Positions 11,200 to 30,353 of a stretch of DNA of 64,000 bases are shown piece by piece. Position 1 is the first letter of the stretch. Every line of letters starts with the position of its first letter. The stretch lies in NCBI RefSeq assembly GCF_024223415.1, contig NZ_CP100502.1. One strand, 5' to 3'. Made by a program: the position numbers and the translations under genes. The notes below the pieces were generated by a model, which saw only the letters and a program-made list of their open reading frames with translations, made no database searches and had not been told where the DNA came from. This DNA comes from Escherichia coli. GTDB taxonomy: Bacteria > Pseudomonadota > Gammaproteobacteria > Enterobacterales > Enterobacteriaceae.

Positions 11200-11905
11200 G
11201 CCCGCGCGAAAACCCCTGGCAGGCTGACGCCTGCCGGAAGGGAAGCGGGCCACGCTGGCGCGTCGCCCGTTACCCTTCCCGTCTGTGATGTGTCTGACTC
11301 AGGAGTGTTTCTTTCTTATGTTATGGAACTGTTCCTGATGTTGTTGTTCCTTTATCTGCTGCTCTGATTCTGACTACTGCAGTGTTGTTCTGTCTGCCGG
11401 GCGCACCTTCGGCTCCCGGCTGCCTGGCGGCATCCGGTCGTCAGGCCCGACTCCGACAGGCAGCTGCTGGCGCACCCGCCAGTCTCCGCCGAACCCGCTG
11501 GCGCGGTTTCGGGCTGTCGCTACGGTCCGATGCGTGAAAACCCGGGCTTGCAGCGACCGTTCCGGTCGCGCCGCCTCTGTCGCGCCGTGACCTGCGCTCC
11601 CTGCACACCTGACGGTGTGTGAGGAAACTGCGCCTGATGGCGCAGCAGTCCTCCCTCCTGCCGCCACCTCTGCGGCCTGTTTCCCGCTGTGGACTTTCCG
11701 GGGGGCAGACGTAACCCCCTCCCGTTCCATCTGTCCAGGGTGAGATGCACCGGCCACAAAATTTTTAGCCATGAACCCGGCAAAAAATTTTGCGTCCGCC
11801 CCCGGACAGCTGTCCCGTGAGGCGGTAAACGGGCCCCCATCGGAAAGGTCCACTGCGGGGAGAAACCCCTGTGAAGTGGACGGCAGGAGGAGCTTTCGCT
11901 CCTCT
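11200..11905 (+). repeat. Family-B ssi/Frpo-like repeat, copy B1
   Basis: seq: long GC-rich repeat shared with 17600..18250 and partly with 20815..21140 (e.g. 'caccttcggctcccggctgcctggcggcatccggtcgtcaggcccgactccgacaggcag'); ends about 70 nt before ssb. Confidence 0.55.
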
Positions 11906-16014: not shown

Positions 16015-16607
16015 TGAAATCAGACGAACAATATCAGGTTCCCGTGTGGATGCGACCTCTGTTGCCGTTGCTCTGCAATACCGGTGGTAATGATCCGGAG
16101 GAACTGCTGAATGATACAGAAACCACCGCCAGTGCGAATATTGTCCGTTATGTACTGATAGTTGCAGTGCGGTCGCAGATTGATCTGCTGCAGCTACTGT
16201 ACAGGAAAGGACTGTTGCGCACAGAGATACCAGGTGGCTTTTCACCGGAAGAAGCGCAGGAACTCCTGGATAATCTGGTGCGCAGCCATATCAGCAAGGC
16301 GTTGTCGGGTGAGCGAATGGCAGCCCGTGACAGAAATGCCGATCTGACCTGGATTCGCCAGCAACTGGTCGATGCCGCCTGGTTTGTCCGTGCCACACTG
16401 GAAGCGCATGGGATGGGCGTCGGAAATGAGAGTCCCTCTGCTCCGCCGGAGACAATGCCGGACATACAGACACGGGAACTGGTTATGTTGATCAAGCGAC
16501 TGGCATCATCGCTGAAAGCGGTGAAACCCGACAGTAGCGTGGTGCGTGAAGCGCAGGACTGGCTGTGCGACAGAAAACTTGTGGATATCACAGATATTCT
16601 CCGGTGA
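16011..16607 (+). CDS. Hypothetical protein
   Basis: seq: ATG 16011 overlaps the psiA stop (track ORF from 15978). Confidence 0.45.
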   Translation: MMKSDEQYQVPVWMRPLLPLLCNTGGNDPEELLNDTETTASANIVRYVLIVAVRSQIDLLQLLYRKGLLRTEIPGGFSPEEAQELLDNLVRSHISKALSGERMAARDRNADLTWIRQQLVDAAWFVRATLEAHGMGVGNESPSAPPETMPDIQTRELVMLIKRLASSLKAVKPDSSVVREAQDWLCDRKLVDITDILR

Positions 16608-16710
16608 ACCAGACATGTATATTTTACGCAGGGACACGCCGATCATGATCGTTTCATATCAGGGGTGGTCTGGAGGTCATGCGGCGTGTCCTCTGCACTC
16701 GCCGGAATAA

Positions 16711-17041
16711 GGAAGTCGCCGGCGGCTCCGCTTTTACCCGGCCATGCGGGGCATGGCCTTGTGGGTTTTCAGCTCTGTGGCCTCAGCGTCGTGTGCGGGC
16801 TGTGCCGTGCCTCCATCTTAGCCGGGCTGGCAGGGATGCAAGGGTACGCTTCGCCGCTGCGGTCACCCGGTCCCTCCTTCCCGTCTGCCGTGATTTTCCG
16901 GTCGTTCACCCGCTCAGATTTCGCGGTCTCACCCTCCAACTCCCGCCAGCCGTGTGCGTCAGGCTGCGGCTTCCCTTGCGCCCTGTGCATCCCCGCCTTA
17001 TCGCCCGGCTTTTATGGAGGCACGGCACCGCCCGGTGTCGC
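16711..17041 (+). repeat. Family-A ssi/Frpo-like repeat, copy A2
   Basis: seq: near-identical to 9727..10057; ends about 30 nt before ardA. Confidence 0.6.
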
Positions 17042-17069
17042 AGAACATGTGACTATGGAGGATTCGGGA

Positions 17070-17570
17070 ATGTCTGTTGTTGCACCTGCTGTATACGTTG
17101 GAACCTGGCACAAATACAACTGTGGAAGCATCGCTGGCCGCTGGTTTGACCTGGCCACGTTTGATGATGAACGCGACTTTTTCGCCGCCTGCCGCTCTCT
17201 TCACCAGGATGAAGCCGATCCTGAACTGATGTTTCAGGATTATGAGGGATTCCCGGGGAATATGGCCTCAGAATGCCATATCAACTGGGCCTATGTTGAA
17301 GGCTTCCGCCAGGCGCGGGATGAAGGCTGCGAAGAGGCTTATCGTCTCTGGGTGGATGATACCGGTGAGACGGATTTTGACACCTTCCGCGATGCCTGGT
17401 GGGGCGAGGCTGACAGTGAGGAGGCTTTTGCGGTTGAGTTCGCCAGTGATACCGGCCTGCTGGCTGACGTGCCGGAGACGGTGGCGCTCTATTTTGACTA
17501 TGAGGCGTATGCGCGGGATTTATTCCTGGACTCCTTCACCTTTATTGACGGTCATGTGTTCCGTCGGTGA
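17070..17570 (+). CDS. ardA: ArdA antirestriction protein (type I R-M inhibitor, DNA mimic)
   Basis: seq: 166 aa '[28 protein letters not shown]..' recognised as IncI1 ArdA, acidic C-terminal half; GGAGG RBS. Confidence 0.9.
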
Positions 17571-17599
17571 TTTACTCCCCCGCTCCGGCGGGGGTATGG

Positions 17600-18250
17600 C
17601 CTGCCAGGCCGCCGGAAAACCCTGGCAGGCTTACGCCTGCCTGAAATGCAGGAGGGCCGCGCCTGCGGCGCTGCCCTTCCTGCCCGTCATGGTGTGAGGC
17701 ATTTTTCTGTTATGTCGTTTCTGTTGTTCTGATTTCCGGAGGCGGGGACACCTTCGGCTCCCGGCTGCCTGGCGGCATCCGGTCGTCAGGCCCGACTCCG
17801 ACAGGCAGCTGCTGGCGCACCCGCCAGTCTCCGCCGAACCCGCTGGCGCGGTTTCGGGCTGCCGCTACGGTCCGATGTCTGAAAAACCAGGCTTGCAGCG
17901 ACCGTTCCGGTCGCGCCGCCCCTGTCGCGCCGGAAACGGCGCTCCCTGCACACCTTACGGTGTGTAAGGCAACTGCGCCTGATGGCGCAGTCAACCCTTC
18001 CGCCGCCACCCCTGCGGCCTGTTTCCCGCTGTGGACTTTCCGGGGGCTGGAGTAACCACATCCCGTTTCAGCAGTCCAGGGGAAGATATACCGTCCACAA
18101 AATTTTTAGCCATAAACCCGGCAAAAAATTTTGCGTCCGCCCCCGGACAGCTGCCCCGTGACGTGGTGACGGACGCCCCATCGGAAAGGTCCACTGCGGG
18201 GAGAAACCCCGAAGAAGTGGACGGCAGAAGGGGCTTTCGCCCCTCCGGGG
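17600..18250 (+). repeat. Family-B ssi/Frpo-like repeat, copy B2
   Basis: seq: aligns along its length with 11200..11905; starts right after the ardA stop. Confidence 0.55.
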
Positions 18251-18298
18251 AGCAACCGGTCGGCCCGGCGACCTGATTCAGCAGAAGGAGATGTTTTC

Positions 18299-18733
18299 AT
18301 GACAGTCAGCAGCACGATTTCCGTTTTTTGCCGCGACGGGGTGTTCCGTACCGTTTACTGCCACCTGCACGGGGAGCCGACCTGGAACGGTCGCATCCTG
18401 CATACTCACTATGCCACCGGTCAGCAGGCCGAAGCCCTGGTTGAACACGGTGATATCCGTTGCCTCGGTCCCCGTTGTGACAAACCCGCCGGGCATACGC
18501 TTCAGAACCCGGTGGACGGTGTGACGGCTTATTACGGACGTGACAGTGGTTTCCGGATGGACAGTGAGGCGCGTGAGTACCGTTCTTTCAGGGAGGCTAT
18601 TGCCACTGAAAGCACTGAAGAGGTGCGCTTCCATTATGTGTTCATCGACGGCTACTGGAAGGTGATGTACCGCACGCCGGAAGGCTGGAAGATGAAAGCG
18701 CTCGCGCTGGCACTGCGTCGCTGTCCGAAATGA
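18299..18733 (+). CDS. Hypothetical protein
   Basis: seq: 144 aa with strong AGAAGGAG RBS, first gene downstream of copy B2. Confidence 0.5.
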   Translation: MTVSSTISVFCRDGVFRTVYCHLHGEPTWNGRILHTHYATGQQAEALVEHGDIRCLGPRCDKPAGHTLQNPVDGVTAYYGRDSGFRMDSEAREYRSFREAIATESTEEVRFHYVFIDGYWKVMYRTPEGWKMKALALALRRCPK

Positions 18734-18824
18734 AAAAAAGGCAGGGCGATAAACCCTGCCTCTCTCCGCCGTTACTTCCCCGCCAGGAAGAGCGGCAGTC
18801 ATCAACAACATAAGGAGTAATATT

Positions 18825-19091
18825 GTGAGACCATCAATTATCTTCGCAACCGCCGAGTATGTAAAGCGTCTGCGTGAAGAGTGCCTGCGGGAGAATAAAC
18901 CCCTGCACCGCCATACCCGCTTCAGACGTCAGGAGCTGGCACAGGATGAGATTAACCCGGACGTCCTGGCGATGAGCGGCCATATCGCCAGACGCTGCAG
19001 TGAGCAGAAGCGGGTGCGTATCCCCGCTATGAAAGTCAGCGAATGGGGCCACCTGCTCCGCGCGCTTGAAATTGAGCGGGTCTGCCACTGA
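18825..19091 (+). CDS. Hypothetical small basic protein
   Basis: seq: 88 aa, GTG start with AAGGAG RBS. Confidence 0.4.
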   Translation: MRPSIIFATAEYVKRLREECLRENKPLHRHTRFRRQELAQDEINPDVLAMSGHIARRCSEQKRVRIPAMKVSEWGHLLRALEIERVCH

Positions 19092-19155
19092 TTAACCCTT
19101 GCCGTCTGCCTGTGCAGGCGGCAGGATACGTTCAGACATCTCACCAGGAGGAACC

Positions 19156-20097
19156 GTGAGTAAGAAGAAAAACACCACAACGCCCACGCCGCATGATGCC
19201 GCGTTCCGGTCGTTCCTGGCGAATCCCGACGTCGCCAGAGATTTTCTGGAACTGCATCTTCCTGCGGAGTACCGGCAGTTGTGCGACCTGTCCACGCTGA
19301 AGCTGGAACCCGCCACCTTTGTTGAGCCGGACCTGCATCAGTACGCCAGCGATATCCTCTGGAGCGTGAAAACCACCGGGGGTGAAGATGGTTATGTTTA
19401 TACGCTCATCGAGCACCAGAGCACCGAAAATCTGTACATGCCTTTTCGCATGTTACGCTACAGTGTGGCGGCGATGCAGAGACATCTGGAGCAGCACAAA
19501 ACGTTGCCACTGGTCATTCCGGTGCTGTTCTATCACGGTGAGCGCAGCCCGTACCCGTACAGCATGAACTGGCTGGACTGTTTTGAGAATCCGGCGCTTG
19601 CGGCTAAAATATACACAAAGCCGTTTCCGCTGGTTGATATCACTGTCGTTGATGACAATGAAATCATGAACCATCGCCGGATGGCCGCACTGACGCTGCT
19701 GATGAAGCATATCCGTCAGCGGGATATGCTGATGTGTCTGGACAACCTGGTCAGAGCACTGCAGGACATCCAGGATGAAGAGCAGATTACAGTTCTTTTC
19801 AACTATCTGCTTAATGGCAGCGAACATGTAACGGTTGAATTTTTGCAGACGCTGGCGCAGCGACTGCCGCAGCACGAGGACAGCATTATGACACTGGCAG
19901 AACGTCTTAAGCAGGAAGGTATCCAGCAAGGTATCCAGCAGGGTATCCAGCAGGGTATCCAGCAGGGAGTTCAGCAGGGGGCGCTTCAAAAAGCACGGGA
20001 AATCGCCCGGGAGCTCCGGAACGCGGGAATGCCGGCAGCACAAATCTGTCAGCTGACCGGACTTTCTGAAGCTGAACTGAAGAACATCACTCACTGA
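19156..20097 (+). CDS. rpn: Rpn-family (YhgA-like, PD-(D/E)XK) recombination-promoting nuclease
   Basis: seq: GTG 19156 with CAGGAGG RBS (track from 19099); N-terminal 'HDAAFRSFLANPDVARDFLELHLP...YASDILWSV...YTLIEHQSTE' matches the YhgA/Rpn family from memory. Confidence 0.75.
   Translation: MSKKKNTTTPTPHDAAFRSFLANPDVARDFLELHLPAEYRQLCDLSTLKLEPATFVEPDLHQYASDILWSVKTTGGEDGYVYTLIEHQSTENLYMPFRMLRYSVAAMQRHLEQHKTLPLVIPVLFYHGERSPYPYSMNWLDCFENPALAAKIYTKPFPLVDITVVDDNEIMNHRRMAALTLLMKHIRQRDMLMCLDNLVRALQDIQDEEQITVLFNYLLNGSEHVTVEFLQTLAQRLPQHEDSIMTLAERLKQEGIQQGIQQGIQQGIQQGVQQGALQKAREIARELRNAGMPAAQICQLTGLSEAELKNITH
19888..20097 (+). CDS. Candidate intragenic small protein (RpnS-like), in frame with the rpn C-terminus
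   Basis: seq: internal ATG 19888 preceded by GAGGA at 8 nt spacing; would encode 'MTLAERLKQEG(IQQG)n...ALQKAREIARELRNAG...'. infer: by analogy with Rpn/RpnS intragenic pairs. Confidence 0.3.
   Translation: MTLAERLKQEGIQQGIQQGIQQGIQQGVQQGALQKAREIARELRNAGMPAAQICQLTGLSEAELKNITH
19919..19978 (+). repeat. Five tandem 12-bp repeats (ggtatccagcag) encoding (GIQQ)n within rpn
   Basis: seq: ggtatccagcaa, ggtatccagcag x3, ggagttcagcag in tandem. Confidence 0.9.
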
Positions 20098-20109
20098 TGA
20101 GAGCCAAAA

Positions 20110-20134
20110 GGCCCGGCAAAATGCCGGGCCTTTT
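20110..20134 (+). terminator. Rho-independent terminator after rpn
   Basis: seq: perfect 9-bp stem 'ggcccggca'/'tgccgggcc', 3-nt loop, then TTTT. Confidence 0.7.
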
Positions 20135-20158
20135 GCCAGCAGGAGCAGAGAAAACAGT

Positions 20159-20329
20159 ATGACGATTGCAGAACGTCTTATACAGAAAGGTTTTGAAAAA
20201 GGTGCTCTTGAAGTGGCGCGGGAAATAGCCTGCCGGCTTCGGGATATGGGCTGGACGCCGGAACGGATTCAGGAGGCCACGGGACTTTCCGGTGAAGAAC
20301 TGAAAAAACTGTTTCCTGATGAGCAGTAG
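20159..20329 (+). CDS. Free-standing small protein resembling the Rpn C-terminal tail (RpnS-like)
   Basis: seq: 56 aa 'MTIAERLIQKGFEKGALEVAREIACRLRDMGWTPERIQEATGLSGEELKKLFPDEQ' aligns with the rpn tail 'MTLAERLKQEG...GALQKAREIARELRNAGMPAAQICQLTGLSEAELKNITH'; AGGAG upstream; below the track's 60-aa cutoff. Confidence 0.5.
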   Translation: MTIAERLIQKGFEKGALEVAREIACRLRDMGWTPERIQEATGLSGEELKKLFPDEQ

Positions 20330-20359
20330 CCTGGCATTCTGCCAGGCTGTGAACCACGC

Positions 20360-20611
20360 TCACACATCCTCTGCCGTTTCCCCCAGTTCATTTTCCAGAC
20401 GCCTGATGATATCTGCCTTGCGCATCCCCTGCATGTGAGGCAGCAGGTCACGGACTGAAAGTGCCTGGGTGGTCCTCCAGACGGTGACATCCACCTGTTC
20501 CGCATTTTCCCAGGCGTGCCATGTTCTCTGTGTCACGCCAAATTCTCTGGCCGCTTTTTCGCGTGACCAGAGCATGCTTTTTCGCCAGATTCGCAGTTCC
20601 CAGCCGGTCAT
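20360..20611 (-). CDS. Small helix-turn-helix regulator
   Basis: seq: 83 aa; 'REKAAREFGVTQRTWHAWEN' looks like an HTH; one of only two minus-strand genes in the leading region. Confidence 0.5.
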   Translation of the reverse strand: MTGWELRIWRKSMLWSREKAAREFGVTQRTWHAWENAEQVDVTVWRTTQALSVRDLLPHMQGMRKADIIRRLENELGETAEDV

Positions 20612-20625
20612 AAAACACCTTTGAA

Positions 20626-20712
20626 AAAGTGAAAAAACTTCACTTTATTTTATCACCATAACCACCAAATCAGCGCGAAAAATAAGTGTGAAAAAGTGAA
20701 GGAATTTCACTT
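20626..20712. promoter_or_regulatory. Two palindromic operator-like sites AAGTGAA-N5-TTCACTT upstream of the HTH gene
   Basis: seq: palindromes at 20627..20645 and 20694..20712. Confidence 0.4.
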
Positions 20713-20814
20713 TTTTTGATTGTAGGTGTCGTGCTGTTTTCTCTGTTTTCACCTGTGCGGGAGTGGTGTGCCAGTGACCACCACATGCCATTGTTGCGCC
20801 GTCGTTTTTCTTCA

Positions 20815-21140
20815 GTCGCGCCGGATGCGGCGCTCCCTGCACACCTTACGGTGTGTAAGGCCACTGCGCCTGATGGCGCAGCTGTCTCTGCCTGTCTGCC
20901 GCCGCACTGCGGCCTGTTCTCCGCAGATGGACTTTCCGGGGGTACATACACGACCACATCCCGTTTCAGTCGTCCAGGGGAGAGATGTACCAGCCACAAA
21001 ACTTTTTGCCGCAGGCGTCAAAAACTTTTGCGTCTGCCCCCGGACAACTGCCCCGTGACGTGGTGAGCGTCCCCCGTCGGAAAGGTCCACTGCGGGGAAA
21101 TCCCCGAAGACCCGGACGGCAGAAGGAGCTTCGCTCCTCC
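20815..21140 (+). repeat. Family-B ssi/Frpo-like repeat, copy B3 (5'-truncated)
   Basis: seq: matches the 3' two-thirds of B1/B2 from 'ggcgctccctgcacaccttacggtgtgtaagg' onward. Confidence 0.5.
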
Positions 21141-21187
21141 GGGAAATGACCTGGCTGACCCGGCAGTCGTGACGATGAGGAGACAAT

Positions 21188-22039
21188 GTGATGAATCAGA
21201 CTTTACCCACTGCTGACCTGAATACTGCCGGCACGACAGATGTTATTCCGTCTGTGGCCATCGACCGCATCATCGCGCAGCGTAACGAAGGTATTGCACT
21301 GTTCATGCAGGCGATGGAATGCCTGGCGACAGCGCGCAGGATTCTGCTTGATGCGTCAGGTGATATTTTTCTTTACGGTTTTGAAGACTGCGTGACCGAC
21401 TCCGTTCGGTGCATGGATAAACCGGAAGAAGCGAAAAGGAATATCACCCGTCTTGCCGACCGGAAAATCTGGGACCGCCTGATGACGGATACGGGGATGT
21501 ACACCTTCATGAGTTCATGTCAGCGTGATGAGTGGAACAGCCAGCTGATGAGCGACACCTGTCCTGAAATCACCCTGGACAATGTACTGGCAACTTTTCG
21601 CCATCTGAATGCCAGTAAGATGCAGACATTTGAACAGGGACTGATTGATGTCTACCGGAAATTGTCATGGGATTACAGAACCAATAATCCCTGCCGTCTG
21701 GGCAAGAGAATCATTATTGAAAACCTGCTGTACCGCTGGAGTAACGGGCGTGTTACGCTGGACTGCAGCGGACGGGAGGCACTGGATGACCTGGTACGTC
21801 CGTTTTATCTGCTGGAGGGGCGCAACGTTCCTGACTTCCGGAGCAGCATCGGGGCGCAGTACGGTGAATTTATCGGGAACGGCGACAATGTCGGTAAGCT
21901 GTTAGAAGGGGAATATTTTACGGTGCGTGGCTACCAGAAAGGGACCGTACACATTGTCTTTAAGCGTCCTGACCTTGTTGAAAAACTGAATGATATTATT
22001 GCACGGCATTATCCTGGTTCATTGCCGCCACGAGTCTGA
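21188..22039 (+). CDS. Hypothetical protein, oriT-proximal leading-region gene
   Basis: seq: 283 aa with GAGGAG RBS, directly after copy B3. Confidence 0.5.
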   Translation: MMNQTLPTADLNTAGTTDVIPSVAIDRIIAQRNEGIALFMQAMECLATARRILLDASGDIFLYGFEDCVTDSVRCMDKPEEAKRNITRLADRKIWDRLMTDTGMYTFMSSCQRDEWNSQLMSDTCPEITLDNVLATFRHLNASKMQTFEQGLIDVYRKLSWDYRTNNPCRLGKRIIIENLLYRWSNGRVTLDCSGREALDDLVRPFYLLEGRNVPDFRSSIGAQYGEFIGNGDNVGKLLEGEYFTVRGYQKGTVHIVFKRPDLVEKLNDIIARHYPGSLPPRV

Positions 22040-22050
22040 TTAAACAGAAA

Positions 22051-22080
22051 AGCCCTGGTATTTATGCCGGGGCTTTTTTT
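22051..22080 (+). terminator. Rho-independent terminator
   Basis: seq: 'agccc...gggct' stem followed by a T7 run just after the 21188..22039 stop. Confidence 0.5.
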
Positions 22081-22123
22081 CTGTAATCATCATAATATCA
22101 GAACATGATGTGACATTGTCACA

Positions 22124-22459
22124 TCAATTGTTGTTCATATCGATGCCATCTTTCCTGGCTGAATCTGTCTTTTTAGATGCTGTTTTAGAGGAAGAACGGC
22201 GGGATGGCTTTTTCGATTCTGCTTCCCGAATAATGTCACGAAGTGCCTTCTCTCCTACTTCATACCCTGCATTTTTGAGCGTATCACGAACATCTGCCAG
22301 TGTATAACCCTTTGTCCTTACCAGAACAATAATGTCATCACGAATGGCATCAAGAAAATCACGCAATGTTTTCCGTTGAGCGGTGAGATCTGGCAATTCC
22401 GATAAAGCAGCTTTTGCCAGCTGGATGTCATCATCTGAGTAAAATTTTTTAGAAGCCAT
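22124..22459 (-). CDS. Hypothetical protein with Lys/Ser/Arg-rich C-terminal tail
   Basis: seq: ATG 22459 with GGAGAG upstream (track GTG 22465); tail 'KKPSRRSSSKTASKKTDSARK' is histone-like; transcribed divergently from nikA. Confidence 0.4.
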   Translation of the reverse strand: MASKKFYSDDDIQLAKAALSELPDLTAQRKTLRDFLDAIRDDIIVLVRTKGYTLADVRDTLKNAGYEVGEKALRDIIREAESKKPSRRSSSKTASKKTDSARKDGIDMNNN

Positions 22460-22586
22460 TGGCACTTTCTCTCCGTTTCATGTTGAAGTCTGATTTTATC
22501 ATCAAAAACTGACTCCTGGCAGGGCTGCGCCCTGCCTCTGCCGTCTGCATAAGACTATGATGCACAAAAATAACAGGCTATAATGG

Positions 22587-22648
22587 CCTGAAAAACGGGA
22601 CAGGATGTGCAATTGTAATACCGTCACACGCGACGCTATTACAATTGC
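22587..22648 (-). other. oriT: Origin of transfer (oriT) core with 17-bp inverted repeat and nic region
   Basis: seq: minus-strand 'ggtattacaattgcacatcctgtcccgtttttcagg' with arms 22609..22625 and 22632..22648. known: from memory the R64 nic lies in 'CATCCTG|TCCCG'; position upstream of nikA fits. Confidence 0.6.
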
Positions 22649-22692
22649 CATCTGGTCAGGGCTTCGCCCCGACACCCCGTAAGGAGCCTGAA

Positions 22693-23025
22693 GTGAGTGA
22701 TAGTGCGGTAAGAAAGAAAAGTGAGGTACGGCAAAAGACAGTTGTCAGGACACTCAGATTCTCTCCTGTTGAGGATGAAACCATCAGGAAAAAAGCTGAA
22801 GATTCCGGACTTACTGTATCTGCTTACATCCGAAATGCAGCACTGAATAAGCGAATTAACTCCCGTACAGATGATGCTTTTCTGAAGGAGTTAATGAGAC
22901 TGGGAAGGATGCAGAAGCATCTGTTTGTTCAGGGAAAAAGAACCGGTGACAAGGAATACGCAGAAGTGCTTGTTGCCATAACCGAACTTACAAATACATT
23001 GCGTAAACAGTTAATGGAAGGTTGA
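22693..23025 (+). CDS. nikA: Relaxosome accessory protein NikA
   Basis: seq: GTG 22693 with AAGGAG RBS gives 110 aa 'MSDSAVRKKSEVRQKTVVRTLRFSPVEDETIRKKAEDSGLTVSAYIRNAAL', matching R64 NikA in size and sequence from memory. Confidence 0.85.
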   Translation: MSDSAVRKKSEVRQKTVVRTLRFSPVEDETIRKKAEDSGLTVSAYIRNAALNKRINSRTDDAFLKELMRLGRMQKHLFVQGKRTGDKEYAEVLVAITELTNTLRKQLMEG

Positions 23026-23035
23026 GGATTCTCCG

Positions 23036-25735
23036 GTGAATGCAGTCATTCCGAAAAAGAGAAGGGACGGCAAGTCTTCGTTCGAAGACCTGGTATCCTA
23101 CGTCTCTGTCCGGGATGACATGACCGATGAGGAACTGGATTTATCTTCTTCTTCGCAGGCTGAACAACCGCACCGAAGCCGTTTCAGTCGCCTTGTTGAT
23201 TATGCGACACGTCTTCGAAATGAGTCATTCGTGGCGCTGGTTGATGTCATGAAGGACGGCTGCGAATGGGTCAACTTTTATGGTGTCACCTGCTTTCATA
23301 ACTGTACTTCTCTTGAAACTGCCGCTGCAGATATGGAGTACATTGCCCGGCAGGCACACTATGCAAAAGATGACACTGATCCTGTTTTTCACTACATCCT
23401 TTCCTGGCAGTCACATGAAAGCCCGCGTCCGGAACAGATTTATGACAGTGTACGTCATACGCTGAAATCACTCGGCCTTGCCGACCATCAGTATGTCTCT
23501 GCCGTGCATACTGATACAGATAATCTGCACGTCCATGTGGCTGTTAACCGGGTACACCCTGAAACGGGTTATCTGAACCGGTTATCCTGGAGTCAGGAAA
23601 AACTCAGTCGTGCCTGCCGTGAGCTTGAACTGAAGCATGGTTTTGCTCCGGATAACGGTTGCTGGGTCCATGCACCGGGAAATCGTATCGTTCGCAAAAC
23701 CGCCGTTGAACGTGATCGCCAGAACGCGTGGACACGCGGGAAAAAACAAACTTTTCGCGAGTATGTCGCGCAGACAGCGGTCGCTGGTTTACGCAGTGAA
23801 CCTGTAAATGACTGGTTATCCCTGCATCGTCGTCTTGCGGAAGATGGTCTGTACCTGTCTCAGATGGACGGAAAATTTCTGGTGATGGATGGCTGGGATC
23901 GCAACAGGGAAGGTGTACAGCTTGACTCGTTTGGTCCCTCCTGGTGTGCAGAAAAACTCATGAAAAAAATGGGTGACTACACGCCAGTACCAAAAGACAT
24001 TTTCAGCCAGGTGGAAGCACCAGGACGCTATAATCCGGACTTCATTGCCGCTGATGTTCGCCCGGAAAAAATCGCTGAAACAGAAAGTCTGCAGCAGTAT
24101 GCCTGTCGTCATCTTGGAGAACGTCTGCCGGAAATGGCACGGGAAGGACGGCTGGAAAACTGCCAGGCTATTCACCGCACACTGGCTGAAGCGGGATTAT
24201 GGATGCGTGTTCAGCATGGTCACCTGGTTATCTGTGACGGTTATGATCATAACCAGACTCCCGTTCGTGCTGACAGCGTATGGTCGCTGCTGACGCTCGA
24301 CAATGTGAATCAACTCGATGGTGGCTGGCAGCCTGTACCAACAGATATTTTCCGCCAGGTTACGCCAACAGAACGCTTCCGTGGTCGTCGTATGGAGAGC
24401 TGTCCTGCGACCGATAAAGAATGGCACCGTATGCGTACAGGCACGGGGCCGCAGGGGGCTATCAAACGCGAACTGTTTTCTGACAAAGAAAGTCTGTGGG
24501 GATACAGCATCAGCCATTGTAGCCCTCAGATTGAAGAAATGATCACACAGGGTGAGTTTACCTGGCAGCGTTGTCATGAGCTGTTTGCACAACAGGGACT
24601 GATGCTACAGAAACAACATCACGGGCTTGTTGTCGTTGATGCCTTTAATCATGAGCAAACGCCGGTGAAGGCCAGCAGCATTCATCCTGATCTGACACTG
24701 GGGCGTGCAGAGCCACAGGCCGGACCTTTTGTGAGTGCCCCAGCAGATTTGTTTGACAGGGTGCAACCTGAAAGTCGCTATAACCCGGAGCTGGCTGTCA
24801 GTGACAGGTACGGGGTCAGCAGTAAACGTGACCCAATGCTGCGCCGGCAGCGACGTGAAGCCAGAGCTGAGGCCCGTGCTGACCTGCGTGCCCGCTATCT
24901 GGCATGGCGTGAACAATGGCGTAAACCAGATCTGCGTTATGGGGAACGTTGTCGGGAAATTCATCAGGCATGCCGTCTGCGGAAGTCACACATTCGTGCG
25001 CAGTACGATGATCCGGCATTACGTAAGCTGCATTATCACATTGCAGAAGTTCAGCGAATGCAGGCATTGATCAGGCTGAAAGAAGACATCAGGGATGAGC
25101 GACAGAAACTTATTGCTGATGGGAAATGGTATCCACCCTCTTACCGTCAGTGGGTCGAAATTCAGGCTGCTCAGGGAGACAGGGCTGCTGTATCGCAGCT
25201 GAGAGGCTGGGATTATCGCGATCGCCGTAAAGACAGGTCACGCACAACGACGACAGACCGCTGTGTCGTGCTTTGTGAACCGGGCGGAACGCCGGTATAC
25301 GGTAATACCGGTGATCTCGAGGCCCGTCTGCAGAAGAACGGGAGTGTTCGTTTCCGTGACCGTCGGACGGGAGAGTTTGTCTGTACGGATTATGGTGACA
25401 GGGTTGTTTTCCGTAATCACCATGACCGCAATGCGCTGGCAGATAAACTGGATTTGATTGCACCGGTATTATTCGGGCGTGATCCACGCATGGGTTTTGA
25501 ACCAGAAGGAAACGACAAACAATTTAACCAGGTCTTTGCTGAAATGGTTGCCTGGCATAATGTGACAGGCCGTACCGGTCACGAAGACTACAGGATTACG
25601 CGACCGGACGTGGATCATCACCGTGAAGGAAGTGAACGCTACTACCGCGATTATATCGCGGCGAACAGCAACAATGACGCATCACTGCCTCCGCCGGAGC
25701 AGGATAAACGCTGGGAACCGCCTTCTCCAGGTTAA
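23036..25735 (+). CDS. nikB: Relaxase NikB
   Basis: seq: 899 aa right after nikA; His-rich motif 'HTDTDNLHVHVAVNRVHP'; size matches R64 NikB. Confidence 0.9.
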   Translation: MNAVIPKKRRDGKSSFEDLVSYVSVRDDMTDEELDLSSSSQAEQPHRSRFSRLVDYATRLRNESFVALVDVMKDGCEWVNFYGVTCFHNCTSLETAAADMEYIARQAHYAKDDTDPVFHYILSWQSHESPRPEQIYDSVRHTLKSLGLADHQYVSAVHTDTDNLHVHVAVNRVHPETGYLNRLSWSQEKLSRACRELELKHGFAPDNGCWVHAPGNRIVRKTAVERDRQNAWTRGKKQTFREYVAQTAVAGLRSEPVNDWLSLHRRLAEDGLYLSQMDGKFLVMDGWDRNREGVQLDSFGPSWCAEKLMKKMGDYTPVPKDIFSQVEAPGRYNPDFIAADVRPEKIAETESLQQYACRHLGERLPEMAREGRLENCQAIHRTLAEAGLWMRVQHGHLVICDGYDHNQTPVRADSVWSLLTLDNVNQLDGGWQPVPTDIFRQVTPTERFRGRRMESCPATDKEWHRMRTGTGPQGAIKRELFSDKESLWGYSISHCSPQIEEMITQGEFTWQRCHELFAQQGLMLQKQHHGLVVVDAFNHEQTPVKASSIHPDLTLGRAEPQAGPFVSAPADLFDRVQPESRYNPELAVSDRYGVSSKRDPMLRRQRREARAEARADLRARYLAWREQWRKPDLRYGERCREIHQACRLRKSHIRAQYDDPALRKLHYHIAEVQRMQALIRLKEDIRDERQKLIADGKWYPPSYRQWVEIQAAQGDRAAVSQLRGWDYRDRRKDRSRTTTTDRCVVLCEPGGTPVYGNTGDLEARLQKNGSVRFRDRRTGEFVCTDYGDRVVFRNHHDRNALADKLDLIAPVLFGRDPRMGFEPEGNDKQFNQVFAEMVAWHNVTGRTGHEDYRITRPDVDHHREGSERYYRDYIAANSNNDASLPPPEQDKRWEPPSPG

Positions 25736-25741
25736 AAAAAA

Positions 25742-25766
25742 GGCCGCGCCAGAATCCGGCGCGGCC
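25742..25766 (-). terminator. Terminator hairpin between convergent nikB and trbC
   Basis: seq: stem 'ggccgcgcc'/'ggcgcggcc' with an A8 run on the + side (U-run for minus-strand transcripts). Confidence 0.55.
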
Positions 25767-25771
25767 ACTGT

Positions 25772-28063
25772 TCAGTACATTCCGTCCCAGTCCGGACGGT
25801 TGGTTTTTTTATGATGAAACCCGTTTACAGGACGCCCTGTCGGGTGGTTATTGTCCTGTGGAAGCGTTAACAGGTTTATACCTGCTCTTTCTGCTCTCAC
25901 TGATATCTGATTTTCCTCTTTTGTTTCAGGTAGTTCTGGTCTGTTCAGCGTGATATAGCGAATTCGTCGCTCTTCCCGTGTGGTCGTTTTAAGCGTATTC
26001 ACCGCTGTTTCCCACAAGGCACTTTCACGTGCGTTGATATCTGTGTCGTACTCTTCCAGCATTGCCATAGCCGCCTGACGTCCTGCAATGCGTTGCTGGA
26101 ATGTATCCACGATCGTGTGCGGCTCTGTGCGAATTTTTCGTCTTTTTCTGGAGGGTTTTGCAGTCAGGACGCCAATGATGGCACTGACATTTTCCGGTGA
26201 CGGTATTCGACGTTGAGTAGTACGGGGAACAAGACGGCGGAGACGGTCCAGGCGTGGCGCATCCACGCTGATATACCTGTTTATAACAACGGGATCGCTG
26301 CTGCAGCTTTTCTCATCGTCAGGGATGAAGAATGATGCTGATGGTACGGTTTCTCCCCGGAAAATAGAAAAGAACTCGCCAGGATGAAGTTCAATCAACT
26401 CCTGAACATTTATCTTGCTTTCCATCAGGATGCTGATTTGTGGGCTGTCAATCCATGATTCACCAAATATGCCGTCCTGACGCTGCAGGTTGTTCATTCT
26501 CGCCCTGGCTTCTTCACCGGCGGCGCTTTTCAGCGTTCTGGCCGTACTACCCTCGCTGACAATCCTGCCGGCAAATTTTGTCCCCGTGTTCTGCATCAGT
26601 GTTGCAGTATTCGTGGCTGTTGTCTGTCCTTCTATACGTTCCTGGTCCTGTGCCATCAAAATCAGAGCAAAATCCAGTGAACGCACCTGAGTGGCTTCCA
26701 CAGCAATACGGTCCGTATAGTATGCCCCCACTTCATCAAGGAAACACAGATAAGGGAAACGCCCCTTATATTTTTTGACTTCCAGTGCATCGGAATCAGT
26801 TCCTTCGAGGCGGTAGCCCAAATCACGGGCGAGAATCATACTTTTCTGGGTGATAAACATTCGTCCAAGAGCAGACGTTGTATGCGCTGATGTATCCAGA
26901 GCGGGGATCATTACCATCAGAATCCTGTCGCTGTGAATGCTGTCACGGATATCGATATCACCGGAATCTTCAGCAAAAATATCCCCGAATGCTTCCGTGA
27001 ATGTGCTGAAAGTTTCAGAAAACTGCCCGGAGAGATAAGCATGTTGTTTTCTGGGTTCTTCCGTCCAGGCTGATGGTGTCCTGACCAGCGACAGGTCGAA
27101 ACCGGGAACGTCCTGAAGGTAGTTACGTAACGGTGCGATAGCTTCTTCCGGCCACTGATCATCGAGGCCACGACAGTAAAGTTTGGCCATCCCTTCGAGA
27201 GTCATATGTTCACGGAGCATCTGCAGCGACATTGTTTTGCCTTCGCGCACACACCAGAATTTAGTACCAAATACTAGTGCCTTATTCATGGCAATGGCCC
27301 GGGACTGCCACTCGCCCCCCTGGACGTTCTGGGGCAGCATTGACTGCATTGTCTCCGCTGTGAATGCCTCAGTGCTGTAACAGAAGGGATTCCAGGTATT
27401 TGACTGAGGACGCGTTTTTTCACCACTCAGAATGATTTCACTGCGGGATTTTCCTCCGTTCATGAAGTTAATGACTTCCACATCGTCTTCACGTCCAAAG
27501 CGTCTGGCCAGATACCAGATCGTTCTTGCCGTATCATTCTGTGCCTTGCCATCGACAAGGGTGAATCCTCTTGCCCAGCAAAGTGGGTTAATCGCCCAGG
27601 CAAAGATGGTTTCCGTTTTACCGCCACCGGTGGTGGCGAAAAACATTATATGGCGGGTCAGATCGTCCATACTCAGCCATAACTCCCTGCCAATATCCCT
27701 GACGCGTTGATAACCAACATAGAATATGCCGCTGGCCGGTGATTCCAGAATGACCTCATACTGGAACAGGGTTGGCCAGAAGCTGAAAAGACTTCTTTTA
27801 ATCATTCTGTCCTGTGACGGGTCAGCACATTCCAGCGTCATGGGCATACGAAGAGGGCAGCGCCATCGCTGCAGACTAAATACCAGCATTGTTATCAGTG
27901 TGAACAACAGACATGCCGGTAATGCAAGTGGCCAGATAAAACTGGCCACAAGACTTGCCACCAGGCAAAAGCCATAGATATTGAGACTCTGGAGTGCATT
28001 CCAGACAGGATTTCCCCAGGCTGTACGGTGTAAAAGCTCGGGGTTAACGCGATGTTCACTCAT
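25772..28063 (-). CDS. trbC: TrbC, transfer protein with nucleotide-binding motif
   Basis: seq: 763 aa, N-terminal membrane spans, Walker A 'ATTGGGKT'. known: trbABC lies next to nikAB in R64. Confidence 0.75.
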   Translation of the reverse strand: MSEHRVNPELLHRTAWGNPVWNALQSLNIYGFCLVASLVASFIWPLALPACLLFTLITMLVFSLQRWRCPLRMPMTLECADPSQDRMIKRSLFSFWPTLFQYEVILESPASGIFYVGYQRVRDIGRELWLSMDDLTRHIMFFATTGGGKTETIFAWAINPLCWARGFTLVDGKAQNDTARTIWYLARRFGREDDVEVINFMNGGKSRSEIILSGEKTRPQSNTWNPFCYSTEAFTAETMQSMLPQNVQGGEWQSRAIAMNKALVFGTKFWCVREGKTMSLQMLREHMTLEGMAKLYCRGLDDQWPEEAIAPLRNYLQDVPGFDLSLVRTPSAWTEEPRKQHAYLSGQFSETFSTFTEAFGDIFAEDSGDIDIRDSIHSDRILMVMIPALDTSAHTTSALGRMFITQKSMILARDLGYRLEGTDSDALEVKKYKGRFPYLCFLDEVGAYYTDRIAVEATQVRSLDFALILMAQDQERIEGQTTATNTATLMQNTGTKFAGRIVSEGSTARTLKSAAGEEARARMNNLQRQDGIFGESWIDSPQISILMESKINVQELIELHPGEFFSIFRGETVPSASFFIPDDEKSCSSDPVVINRYISVDAPRLDRLRRLVPRTTQRRIPSPENVSAIIGVLTAKPSRKRRKIRTEPHTIVDTFQQRIAGRQAAMAMLEEYDTDINARESALWETAVNTLKTTTREERRIRYITLNRPELPETKEENQISVRAERAGINLLTLPQDNNHPTGRPVNGFHHKKTNRPDWDGMY

Positions 28064-29126
28064 GGCCAGACTCGCTGTCGGTGGTTTTCAGGAATAAATT
28101 AAGCGTGCCAGTTTCCTGCAGAATTCCTGTAGGCAGATGCCAGCCGGTGTCGGACAGCACCCATGGGGTACCGGCAAATCCGAACTTACGGAAGGCGACA
28201 TTGTTAACATCAATCGCAGCTCTGGCTGCTTTCAGGCATGTTTCATCTGCAGGCGTTGTTTCTTCTGATGGCGTCATCATTCCGTTATCTGCGGAATACA
28301 GTCGGTGCCAGCCGGCAGCACGTTTCTGAGCATCTTTTTCACACAGCAGTGGTGCCACACGGTCGGTGGATTCCTCTCCACCAATAACTGAAACCGGGTA
28401 GATAACGACATTGAAGTCGCTGGCCAGGCGTTTTAAGGCCGGCTCCAGAAGTCTGCAGTTAGGACAGGCAGGATCGAGAAATGCGAACAGGGTTCGTTCA
28501 TGACCGGATGACAGGTTGATGGTAAACATGCCCCGATCGGCGTTCCGCTTCAGAACAGTAGCCAGATTATGTCGCGCAGCTGCGGCTTCCGGATTTTTGC
28601 TTGTGATTGTTTTCTCCGGGACCTGGACGTCTTTTTTCGGGGGAACCGGGAGTTGAATGCCTTCATTTAATGGCACAGTGTGATTCAGGTGAGGGGGTAG
28701 CAGTCGTGGCTCACCTGCTGTCTGTACTGCTTCGGGCGTTGTATCATCCCAGAATACACGATCAACATAGCGGAACAGAGAGAAGCCAATCGTTGCCATT
28801 ACGAACAGCACAACGCTGGCGATTATGCCACGGAACAAAGGTGTTCTGCTGAAGCGGCGTTCCATCAGATATTCAAGGCGCAGGCAGGAATCAATAGCTG
28901 TAAGTATCTGGTCAGCGTTATGCTCCTGTTTATCAATCAGGACGGTTTCTCTGTTACGGGTGCCCATGGCGTCAAAGGCTATATGAATCAGTTGATTATT
29001 TCGTGTTACCAGCCCTGACAGGGCATCCCGTGGAAGGACGGCAATAATTTCTGTCCTGCCATCCGGCCAGATTGCCTGCACGGAAATATGTTTTGCAATG
29101 CGTGTTGCAAAGTACTCGATTGTCAT
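28056..29126 (-). CDS. trbB: TrbB, thioredoxin-fold disulfide isomerase-like transfer protein
   Basis: seq: 356 aa with CxxC 'DPACPNC'. Confidence 0.75.
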   Translation of the reverse strand: MTIEYFATRIAKHISVQAIWPDGRTEIIAVLPRDALSGLVTRNNQLIHIAFDAMGTRNRETVLIDKQEHNADQILTAIDSCLRLEYLMERRFSRTPLFRGIIASVVLFVMATIGFSLFRYVDRVFWDDTTPEAVQTAGEPRLLPPHLNHTVPLNEGIQLPVPPKKDVQVPEKTITSKNPEAAAARHNLATVLKRNADRGMFTINLSSGHERTLFAFLDPACPNCRLLEPALKRLASDFNVVIYPVSVIGGEESTDRVAPLLCEKDAQKRAAGWHRLYSADNGMMTPSEETTPADETCLKAARAAIDVNNVAFRKFGFAGTPWVLSDTGWHLPTGILQETGTLNLFLKTTDSESGHE

Positions 29127-29144
29127 TTTCAGTTCTCCGGATAA

Positions 29145-30353
29145 TCAGAATTCGTTGTCTGTAGCAGGTGTGCGGGGCAGGATGTCGTCGGTGAGGGACC
29201 AGTTGGTCAGGATGCGGCGTTTCCGGTCGCGATCTGGTTGTGGTTCATCCCAGATAAGACCGAGACTGAGCATATCCCGCCGTAAGCCTTCCACCGCTTC
29301 ATCAACACAGGGTTCAGGGCAGGGAAGACCAAAACGCATGGCTTCGGCCTCTGCACGTGCAACGGCCACCACGCCAGCGCCTTCAATAAATCCTTTCGTG
29401 GTATTGGCGCGGTGTAATGCATAAAACAGCGTCCTGTCCACGCCTTTCAGCCAAATCCAGTTGGGTGGCGTAAGCCGCAGGTCATGTGCATACAGCCAGA
29501 CCAGCCCACTGCGGACGTAGCGATGTTGTTTCAGCCATTGCTGTGCTCCGTTGCTTTTAATCACTCTCTGGAAAGCTGATTTGGCCAGTGAATAAACAGG
29601 GGTACAGAATTTCCCACTGTCCCGTTTGCTTTTAATTCTGCATGAGAGGTTCAGTGTATCCATGAGCTTTAATGCTGCCTTACGATCATCCAGGAAATAC
29701 TGAAGACCAAATATGGCAAAGAGCGCTTTTTCATGTGGTGCCATGTCTTTCCAGGACGTTAAAGGTTTACCCAACTGGGCCATGAAACATCGTCTTGCAG
29801 CTGCAACATCGAGCTGCATATTGGTGATGAGAGTATGCTGCTCGACAAATGCTTCCGGGGTGAGAGCAACCCGCCGTTCAGGTCGTTTGCCACCATGAAA
29901 GAGTTTTTCCGGATCACCATCTGCCAGTACAGGGGCGATAGCAGGGGACAACGAAGCAAAGATGTGTGGCAGTCGGGTAATATCTACTGGTCTGCGGGTG
30001 AAACGACTTTGTCCCGGATGTTGATACCACTCCCACAAACACCAGAGTGTCACAGGTAAGAGGTACATCCACAGAATACCTATGGTCTGCTCCATGACAT
30101 TAACCCACTGGCTATAGCTTATGTTGGCGGCGTTGTTACCGGTCATGGCAAGCAGGTTGTATCGTGGTGCTGCATAGTTATGAAATGGTCCCCAGTCAAC
30201 CAGTCCCCATAAGGTATGAAGAATCAGGCAGCTGGCGTAAACCACTTCCGGCAAGAATAACCATATAACGAATAGCAGCAGGATAAGAAGGACACCAACA
30301 GCGCCCCATATCTGCATAGGATCTTCTGCGACAGGCTGTCGATTGTAAGACAT
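29145..30353 (-). CDS. trbA: TrbA, membrane transfer protein
   Basis: seq: 402 aa with hydrophobic N-terminus; position in trbCBA. Confidence 0.7.
   Translation of the reverse strand: MSYNRQPVAEDPMQIWGAVGVLLILLLFVIWLFLPEVVYASCLILHTLWGLVDWGPFHNYAAPRYNLLAMTGNNAANISYSQWVNVMEQTIGILWMYLLPVTLWCLWEWYQHPGQSRFTRRPVDITRLPHIFASLSPAIAPVLADGDPEKLFHGGKRPERRVALTPEAFVEQHTLITNMQLDVAAARRCFMAQLGKPLTSWKDMAPHEKALFAIFGLQYFLDDRKAALKLMDTLNLSCRIKSKRDSGKFCTPVYSLAKSAFQRVIKSNGAQQWLKQHRYVRSGLVWLYAHDLRLTPPNWIWLKGVDRTLFYALHRANTTKGFIEGAGVVAVARAEAEAMRFGLPCPEPCVDEAVEGLRRDMLSLGLIWDEPQPDRDRKRRILTNWSLTDDILPRTPATDNEF

Follow-up and report, generated by a model that had tools for sequence, protein, structure and literature searches.

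Rpn genes are genes-within-genes whose full-length product is a toxic endonuclease, RpnL (Zhong et al. 2023, PNAS 120:e2307382120; PMC10400941), and the C-terminal domain produced from an internal start, RpnS, is the antitoxin of RpnL (PMC10400941). The same authors reported internal transcription starts in rpn genes (PMC10400941), and in RpnA the catalytic residues are D11, D63, E82, and Q84 (PMC5350276). Four-residue repeats start 8–20 residues after the RpnS methionine and vary among strains, and in the RpnA-S crystal structure the long first helix of RpnS is the dimer interface (PMC10400941). When the number of repeats was changed by plus or minus one in RpnC, neutralization was lost: only RpnS with the same number of repeats neutralizes RpnL, as tested on RpnC, and cross-neutralization disappears once RpnC-S or RpnC-LS carries one extra repeat (PMC10400941). 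For the plasmid-encoded RpnP2, studied as the allele of E. coli ECOR13, the toxicity of RpnP2-L is relieved by RpnP2-S, and RpnP2-LS protects E. coli from T-even phages (PMC10400941). The mechanism of repeat expansion was left open by the authors, who suggested RpnL itself as a possible contributor (PMC10400941). Our search of the literature from 2024 onward on RpnS/RpnL returned unrelated papers only.

A comparable case, cited as an analogy in PMC10400941, is that of the TAEL repeats of the HsdS subunits of EcoR124I and EcoR124II (two vs. three copies), where an in-frame four-residue helical repeat resets spacing and, with it, specificity. The HsdS repeat spaces two DNA-recognition domains, whereas that of RpnP2 would tune a protein-protein interface between toxin and antitoxin.

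We analyzed a 64-kb stretch of E. coli plasmid DNA (NZ_CP100502.1, hereafter the window) that carries an rpn gene with a repeat of this kind. In our reading, to which we assign a probability of about 85%, the tract is the specificity repeat of the Rpn gene-within-a-gene toxin-antitoxin system RpnP2 of IncI-type plasmids, and its units are gained and lost by slippage or unequal recombination. The repeat would then be the specificity dial of a defense system found on resistance plasmids of the IncI, IncK, and IncB/O types, which are very common. Both the repeat variation and its part in deciding which toxin pairs with which antitoxin are already known from the 2023 paper, which includes this very gene, and the main value of this work is that a naive reading of the sequence recovers published biology. 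The additions are modest: the copy-number spectrum of the RpnP2 allele (two to six copies, mode five), the restriction of repeat changes to perfect core units, one recent change of copy number seen on an almost identical backbone together with mosaics that have their junction at the repeat, and a downstream paralog, RpnSs, much more variable than RpnP2.

The host gene lies on the plus strand at 19156..20097 and encodes a PD-(D/E)XK Rpn/YhgA-like nuclease toxin (RpnL) of 313 aa. The annotated start is the GTG at 19156, while the mechanical open reading frame begins upstream, at the TTG at 19099; the stop is at 20097. The product matched PF04754 (Transposase_31 / Rpn family) with an E value of 5e-78 over profile positions 1–199 of 203, and TIGR01784 with 177.6 bits, above its cut-off of 52.1. 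It scored 323–329 bits against the RpnA and RpnB equivalog models, below their cut-off of 583, and was not assigned to either. The same gene is WP_000038339.1 in the plasmid ColIb-P9 (NC_002122.1, 36191–37132).

The identity of the gene as RpnP2 was established from the synthetic fragments of Zhong et al. listed in Dataset S2 of the bioRxiv version. All 399 nt compared of gBlock AO591 (RpnP2) are identical to window 18856–19254, a stretch made of 300 nt upstream of the gene and its first 99 nt. The compared sequence of gBlock AO730, the active-site mutant, differs from window 19156–19553 by D14A, D66A, E86A, and Q88K and by eight silent substitutions; D14, D66, E86, and Q88, the residues altered in this mutant, are all present in the window gene. 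On the basis of the AO591 identity and the AO730 match, the window gene is an allele of the experimentally characterized RpnP2. The layout is also the same as on the ECOR13 plasmid, with RpnL and the intragenic RpnS followed by RpnSs. The two loci are allelic variants, distinguished by silent differences and by RpnSs, where the authors' reverse primer reads GFD and the window has GFE. Since the eight silent differences of AO730 coincide with those of a four-copy allele found on another plasmid (L003, see below), and since the primer reads GFD, the ECOR13 allele tested by Zhong et al. probably has a repeat number different from that of the window in both genes.

Within rpnP2, a Shine-Dalgarno-like GAGGA (19876..19880, plus strand) lies 7 nt before an in-frame ATG at 19888. 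Both the ATG and the GAGGA were kept in all the 11 alleles examined, including those of both allele families described below. This points to an internal start with its own ribosome-binding site, from which a small C-terminal protein of 69 aa, RpnP2-S (19888..20097, plus strand), would be produced as a predicted intragenic antitoxin domain. Its predicted sequence is MTLAERLKQE-(GIQQ)4-GVQQ-GALQKAREIARELRNAGMPAAQICQLTGLSEAELKNITH. The repeat begins at residue 11, to be compared with the published range of 8–20 residues after the RpnS methionine, and residues 29–65 match the RpnA-S chain of PDB 7th0 (phmmer, E value of 6e-5). A consensus promoter scan of rpn found a single sigma-70-like site, at 19583–19610 (TTGAGA-16-TAAAAT, 10/12 matches), about 280 nt 5′ of the internal start. 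As one such match is no more than chance expects, we claim no internal promoter in the gene.

The repeat tract occupies 19918..19977 on the plus strand and consists of five codon-aligned units. Unit 1 (19918–19929) is GGTATCCAGCAA and encodes GIQQ; units 2–4 (19930–19941, 19942–19953, and 19954–19965) are GGTATCCAGCAG each, also encoding GIQQ; and unit 5 (19966–19977) is GGAGTTCAGCAG, encoding GVQQ. Tandem Repeats Finder (TRF) reported the array at 19918..19979, with a period of 12, 5.2 copies, 92% matches, a score of 96, and GGTATCCAGCAG as consensus. Three copies are perfect, one has one mismatch, and one has three, with the degenerate units at the two ends. The preliminary description, made from the sequence alone, had placed five near-perfect tandem copies at 19919–19978: the five in-frame units were there, near-perfection held for four of them, and the coordinates were shifted by +1. 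Its placement of the repeat in frame within the rpn tail was correct, as the array is in frame with the open reading frame 19099..20097 (frame check 0) that hosts PF04754. The array is by far the top-scoring one in the window (the runner-up scores 51). A chance origin was rejected by running TRF on each of 40 dinucleotide-preserving shuffles of the window, which reached a maximum score of 68, with a mean of maxima of 42. Two antisense open reading frames over the tract (19453..20094, 213 aa, and 19907..20041, 44 aa) are mirror readings of the repeat and were set aside as unsupported. The tract is a hypervariable four-residue (dodecamer) repeat common to RpnP2-L and RpnP2-S.

Compared with RpnC and RpnA, whose units are KGIE/KGIQ, the repeat of RpnP2 has the same four-residue period soon after the RpnS start, the same place in helix 1, a strain-variable copy number, and one hydrophobic residue per unit. 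The GIQQ unit differs in being glutamine-rich, whereas the units of RpnC and RpnA are charged and the paper describes "charged residues or glycine."

The preliminary description had treated the tract as a linker of variable length. The AlphaFold2 (AF2) model of RpnP2-S, built on 15 variants, has helices at residues 3–45, 50–57, and 61–65, with a mean pLDDT of 73.5 and moderate confidence across the repeat (pLDDT 62–66). When the model was searched against the PDB with Foldseek, 7th0 ranked first, with a probability of 1.00, a TM-target of 0.73, and a weak E value of 0.043. On the basis of the sequence match to 7th0, the AF2 helices, and the Foldseek top match, the repeat is placed by the model within the first, long helix of the three that form the RpnS domain and is not a flexible linker. 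Likewise, the preliminary description had correctly noted that the free-standing paralog downstream reads FEK at the position of the repeat: in the alignment of that 56-aa product, GFEK falls in the repeat columns. This segment is not a short linker either, being one copy of the paralog's own repeat, which is present in zero to six copies in other plasmids.

The comparison of copy number across related plasmids, proposed in the preliminary description, was run on eleven related loci (L001–L011) and showed that the number is not invariant, the same allele being found with two, three, four, five, and six copies. With five copies in the Rpn tail of the window, there were six in L001 and L002, four in L003 and L004, three in L005, and two in L010. 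Every observed repeat-length variant was a multiple of 12 nt and in frame, as had been anticipated. Furthermore, length changed only in the perfect core units, which range from zero to four, while the first (…CAA) and the last (GGAGTTCAGCAG) units were kept; in the two-copy L010, the second unit encodes GIQQ, not GVQQ. The anticipated effect on both Rpn and its intragenic product also agrees with the ATG at 19888 and the GAGGA conserved in every allele, from which both proteins would be expected to carry each change.

To count alleles, we aligned a synthetic three-copy allele to the plasmid collection with BLAST and sorted the records by copy number on the basis of the lengths of the match spans. 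Records with the window allele were about 318 in total, not independent samples of one another: 6 had two copies, 19 had three, 13 had four, about 274 had five, 5 had six, and none had seven. Coherently, 276 records were at least 99% identical to the five-copy sequence of the window, and a synthetic seven-copy allele had no exact match in the plasmid collection. The five-copy class makes up about 86% of the records with the window allele and comes from many hosts.

The most informative pair is L001 and the window, which differ by 2 SNPs in 2,333 aligned nt and by one extra 12-nt unit in L001. Since only two SNPs separate the two backgrounds, the sequences indicate that the extra unit is a recent event. 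This was the one instance of a unit change on a near-identical background among the loci compared; the two-, three-, and four-copy alleles are on backgrounds with 58–71 SNPs per 2.3 kb (2.5–3% diverged). Because about 86% of the records are at five copies and the other numbers occur mostly on diverged backgrounds, we do not count the tract as highly unstable: what it shows is polymorphism on an evolutionary time scale, not demonstrable instability. The confinement of change to the perfect core fits slippage and unequal recombination alike. In the preliminary description, the tract was a plausible slipped-strand hotspot; the gain and loss of core units does fit slippage, but unequal recombination fits too, and most of the records keep five copies.

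These data also bear on whether the tract could be a contingency (phase-variation) locus, in which high-frequency change within a culture switches Rpn on and off. A tandem repeat with a perfect core is what such a locus would have, and in one plasmid (L011, NZ_LT985280.1) unit 1 lacks 2 nt, at the equivalent of window 19926, with the rest of the 2.26-kb background the same as in the window. The deletion shifts the reading frame of RpnL and RpnS alike, and this record leaves the gene unannotated; it may be a real inactivation, but this lone deletion may also be a sequencing error. A 12-nt unit, moreover, keeps gains and losses in frame and cannot switch expression, the five-copy allele is unchanged in about 274 records across many hosts, and on a near-identical background only one unit change was seen. 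For these reasons, we consider phase variation very unlikely.

A second allele family was found in L006, L007, and L008 (IncK2/Z and IncF replicons), where GIQQ is encoded by other codons, with GGAATACAGCAG as unit, bordered by GIQK units, and the copy number varies as well (5, 6, and 3 copies). Since the two allele families encode GIQQ with different codons, their sequences suggest that the constraint acts on the peptide and not on the DNA. The locus of L008 (NZ_MW800640.1, 377–1294, the counterpart of window 19156–20097) is a mosaic: it is of the window type up to the repeat and continues with a repeat of the GGAATACAGCAG type and the diverged tail that goes with this second family. The recombination junction is at the repeat, and the L008 type seems to be shared by about 56 plasmid records. 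A further ~57 records matched the three-copy query at 80–90% identity; given the matching counts, of which the ~56 is extrapolated, these are most likely L008-type mosaics.

Mosaics with a junction at the repeat are one reason to ask if the 12-mers matter primarily as DNA, either as binding sites (iterons, operators) or as a site of recombination or cleavage, for instance by Rpn, with their coding role being secondary. The authors' speculation that RpnL may help to expand the repeats (PMC10400941) goes in the same direction. Nevertheless, the unit differs between the two families (GGTATCCAGCAG vs. GGAATACAGCAG) while the peptide is the same, the units of the paralog RpnSs are different again, the units lack inverted symmetry, and they are not known to be bound by any protein. 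We hold this explanation to be extremely improbable.

Under the specificity-repeat reading, RpnP2-L would be a toxic PD-(D/E)XK DNA endonuclease, and its 69 C-terminal residues would also be translated separately, from the ATG at 19888, as RpnP2-S, which would bind and block RpnL. The GIQQ repeat would sit in the long first helix, the dimerization and pairing surface. From helix geometry, each extra unit is expected to make the helix about 6 Å longer and to turn it by about 40 degrees, and only partners with equal repeats would fit. As the same DNA encodes both L and S, the gain or loss of a unit would alter both at once, and the cognate pair would stay matched. The matched pair would be insulated from other Rpn antitoxins, namely the neighboring RpnSs and the host chromosomal Rpn paralogs. 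Units would be gained or lost within the perfect GGTATCCAGCAG run by replication slippage or unequal recombination. The specificity by repeat number was experimentally shown for RpnC, not for RpnP2, to which we extend the rule by inference.

The alternative is that the polymorphism is neutral, namely that the tract is a tolerated, expandable, low-complexity segment that can change length without affecting Rpn function, its variation being mutational noise in a slippage-prone sequence. The dominance of one copy number, about 274/318 records, can be read in this way, and so can the absence of a relation between the copy numbers of RpnP2 and RpnSs (Spearman rho of 0.04, 10 loci). On the other hand, the same GIQQ peptide is encoded with different codons in the two allele families, a comparable repeat occupies the corresponding position of the helix in the paralog, and all length changes are in frame. 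Furthermore, a single repeat added to RpnC-S or RpnC-LS was enough to end cross-neutralization (PMC10400941). Neutrality is, in our judgment, unlikely.

The paralog, RpnSs, is a free-standing 56-aa protein encoded on the plus strand at 20159..20329. In its alignment with RpnP2-S, the identity is 51%, with 18 invariant columns, and on this basis it was assigned as an RpnS paralog. RpnSs matches the C-terminal end of TIGR01784 (E value of 2.9e-7, 30.6 bits, below the 52.1 cut-off), and against Pfam it had no match above cut-off and no match to DUF4351. Small RpnS-like genes with their own variable repeat are also found directly downstream of rpn in RpnE-YpaA (RpnE-Ss) and RpnC-Ss. According to the paper, RpnC-Ss and RpnE-Ss each group with the respective upstream partner, whereas the RpnSs of the window is only 51% identical to its own and has a different unit, GF[DEK][EKQ].

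The GFEK of RpnSs (20189–20200) is a single copy of this unit; elsewhere the repeat reads, for example, GFDE GFDE GFKE GFKE GFKK, and L008 has none. A translated search found rpnSs in 2,029 plasmid records. Among 60 sampled rows, the gene spans 156, 168, 180, 192, 204, 216, or 228 nt, corresponding to zero to six copies, with no dominant class. The RpnSs repeat is much more variable than that of RpnP2, and its copy numbers are distributed far more evenly. Among 5,426 complete E. coli genomes, rpnSs was present in 1,340, and 1,733 of its 1,751 places are on plasmids; a supposed match between RpnSs and the tail of a chromosomal Rpn found no support at the DNA level and was dropped.

As regards the plasmid setting, the 1,242 nt around rpnP2 are 100% identical to ColIb-P9 (NC_002122.1, IncI1, Shigella sonnei) as well as to several others of the IncI1 group, and for the 13.3 kb of window 16659–29965 the identity to ColIb-P9 is 99.66%. 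The order in this stretch is ardA, rpn, the 56-aa open reading frame, a divergent HTH regulator, a DUF4942 gene, and nikA/nikB. Since the stretch runs from ardA to nikA/nikB, rpnP2 belongs to the leading region, adjoining oriT, and the plasmid, of the IncI1 type, is closely related to ColIb-P9. That the window equals ColIb-P9 throughout was ruled out by the divergence upstream of 16028–16659, where identity falls to 97.7%, and by an absent gene: ColIb-P9 has a TnpB gene (RNA-guided endonuclease family) between psiA and ardA (NC_002122.1, 32365–33694), which is missing at window 16028–16659.

GC-rich direct repeats of about 290 nt, at window 17924–18209 and 20815–21105, bracket the rpn-rpnSs-HTH module, and further copies lie near 11398–11904 and 17752–18245. 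Folded as single-stranded DNA, one copy reached −90.4 kcal/mol (z of −8.9 vs. shuffles). We presume that these repeats are probably single-strand promoter elements of the Frpo/ssi type, known from the leading regions of IncI1 and F plasmids.

This arrangement allows a further reading of RpnSs as an orphan antitoxin expressed early, with an anti-defense role against the Rpn nucleases of recipient cells or competing plasmids, its repeat number deciding which foreign RpnL would be matched. We admit it because the RpnSs repeat varies from zero to six copies independently of RpnP2, because RpnSs is only 51% identical to RpnP2-S, and because the gene lies in the leading region between single-strand-promoter-like elements. 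We regard it as improbable. The paper on leading-region anti-defense genes makes no mention of Rpn, YhgA, or PF04754. If the orphan-antitoxin reading were true, repeat-length variation at the locus would reflect two coupled arms races, not one.

Some minor features complete the picture of the locus. Between rpnP2 and rpnSs, the sequence contains a GC-rich, terminator-like hairpin, GGCCCGGCA-AAA-TGCCGGGCC followed by TTTT (20110..20134, plus strand), which is absent from the consensus scan list because its tail has only four T. In three of the related loci (L005, 1294–1563; L006, 1261–1518; L007, 1273–1497), the annotation of rpnSs includes an N-terminal extension (MRTTKPGKMPGFF...) that runs through this hairpin; the start is probably mis-called there, the conserved start being MTIAERL. 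L007 carries two rpnSs genes in tandem. Finally, two 42-nt AT-rich direct repeats (20612–20653 and 20679–20720), 79% identical and 67 nt apart, are found directly upstream of the minus-strand HTH regulator gene (20360–20611) and may be its operator/promoter region.
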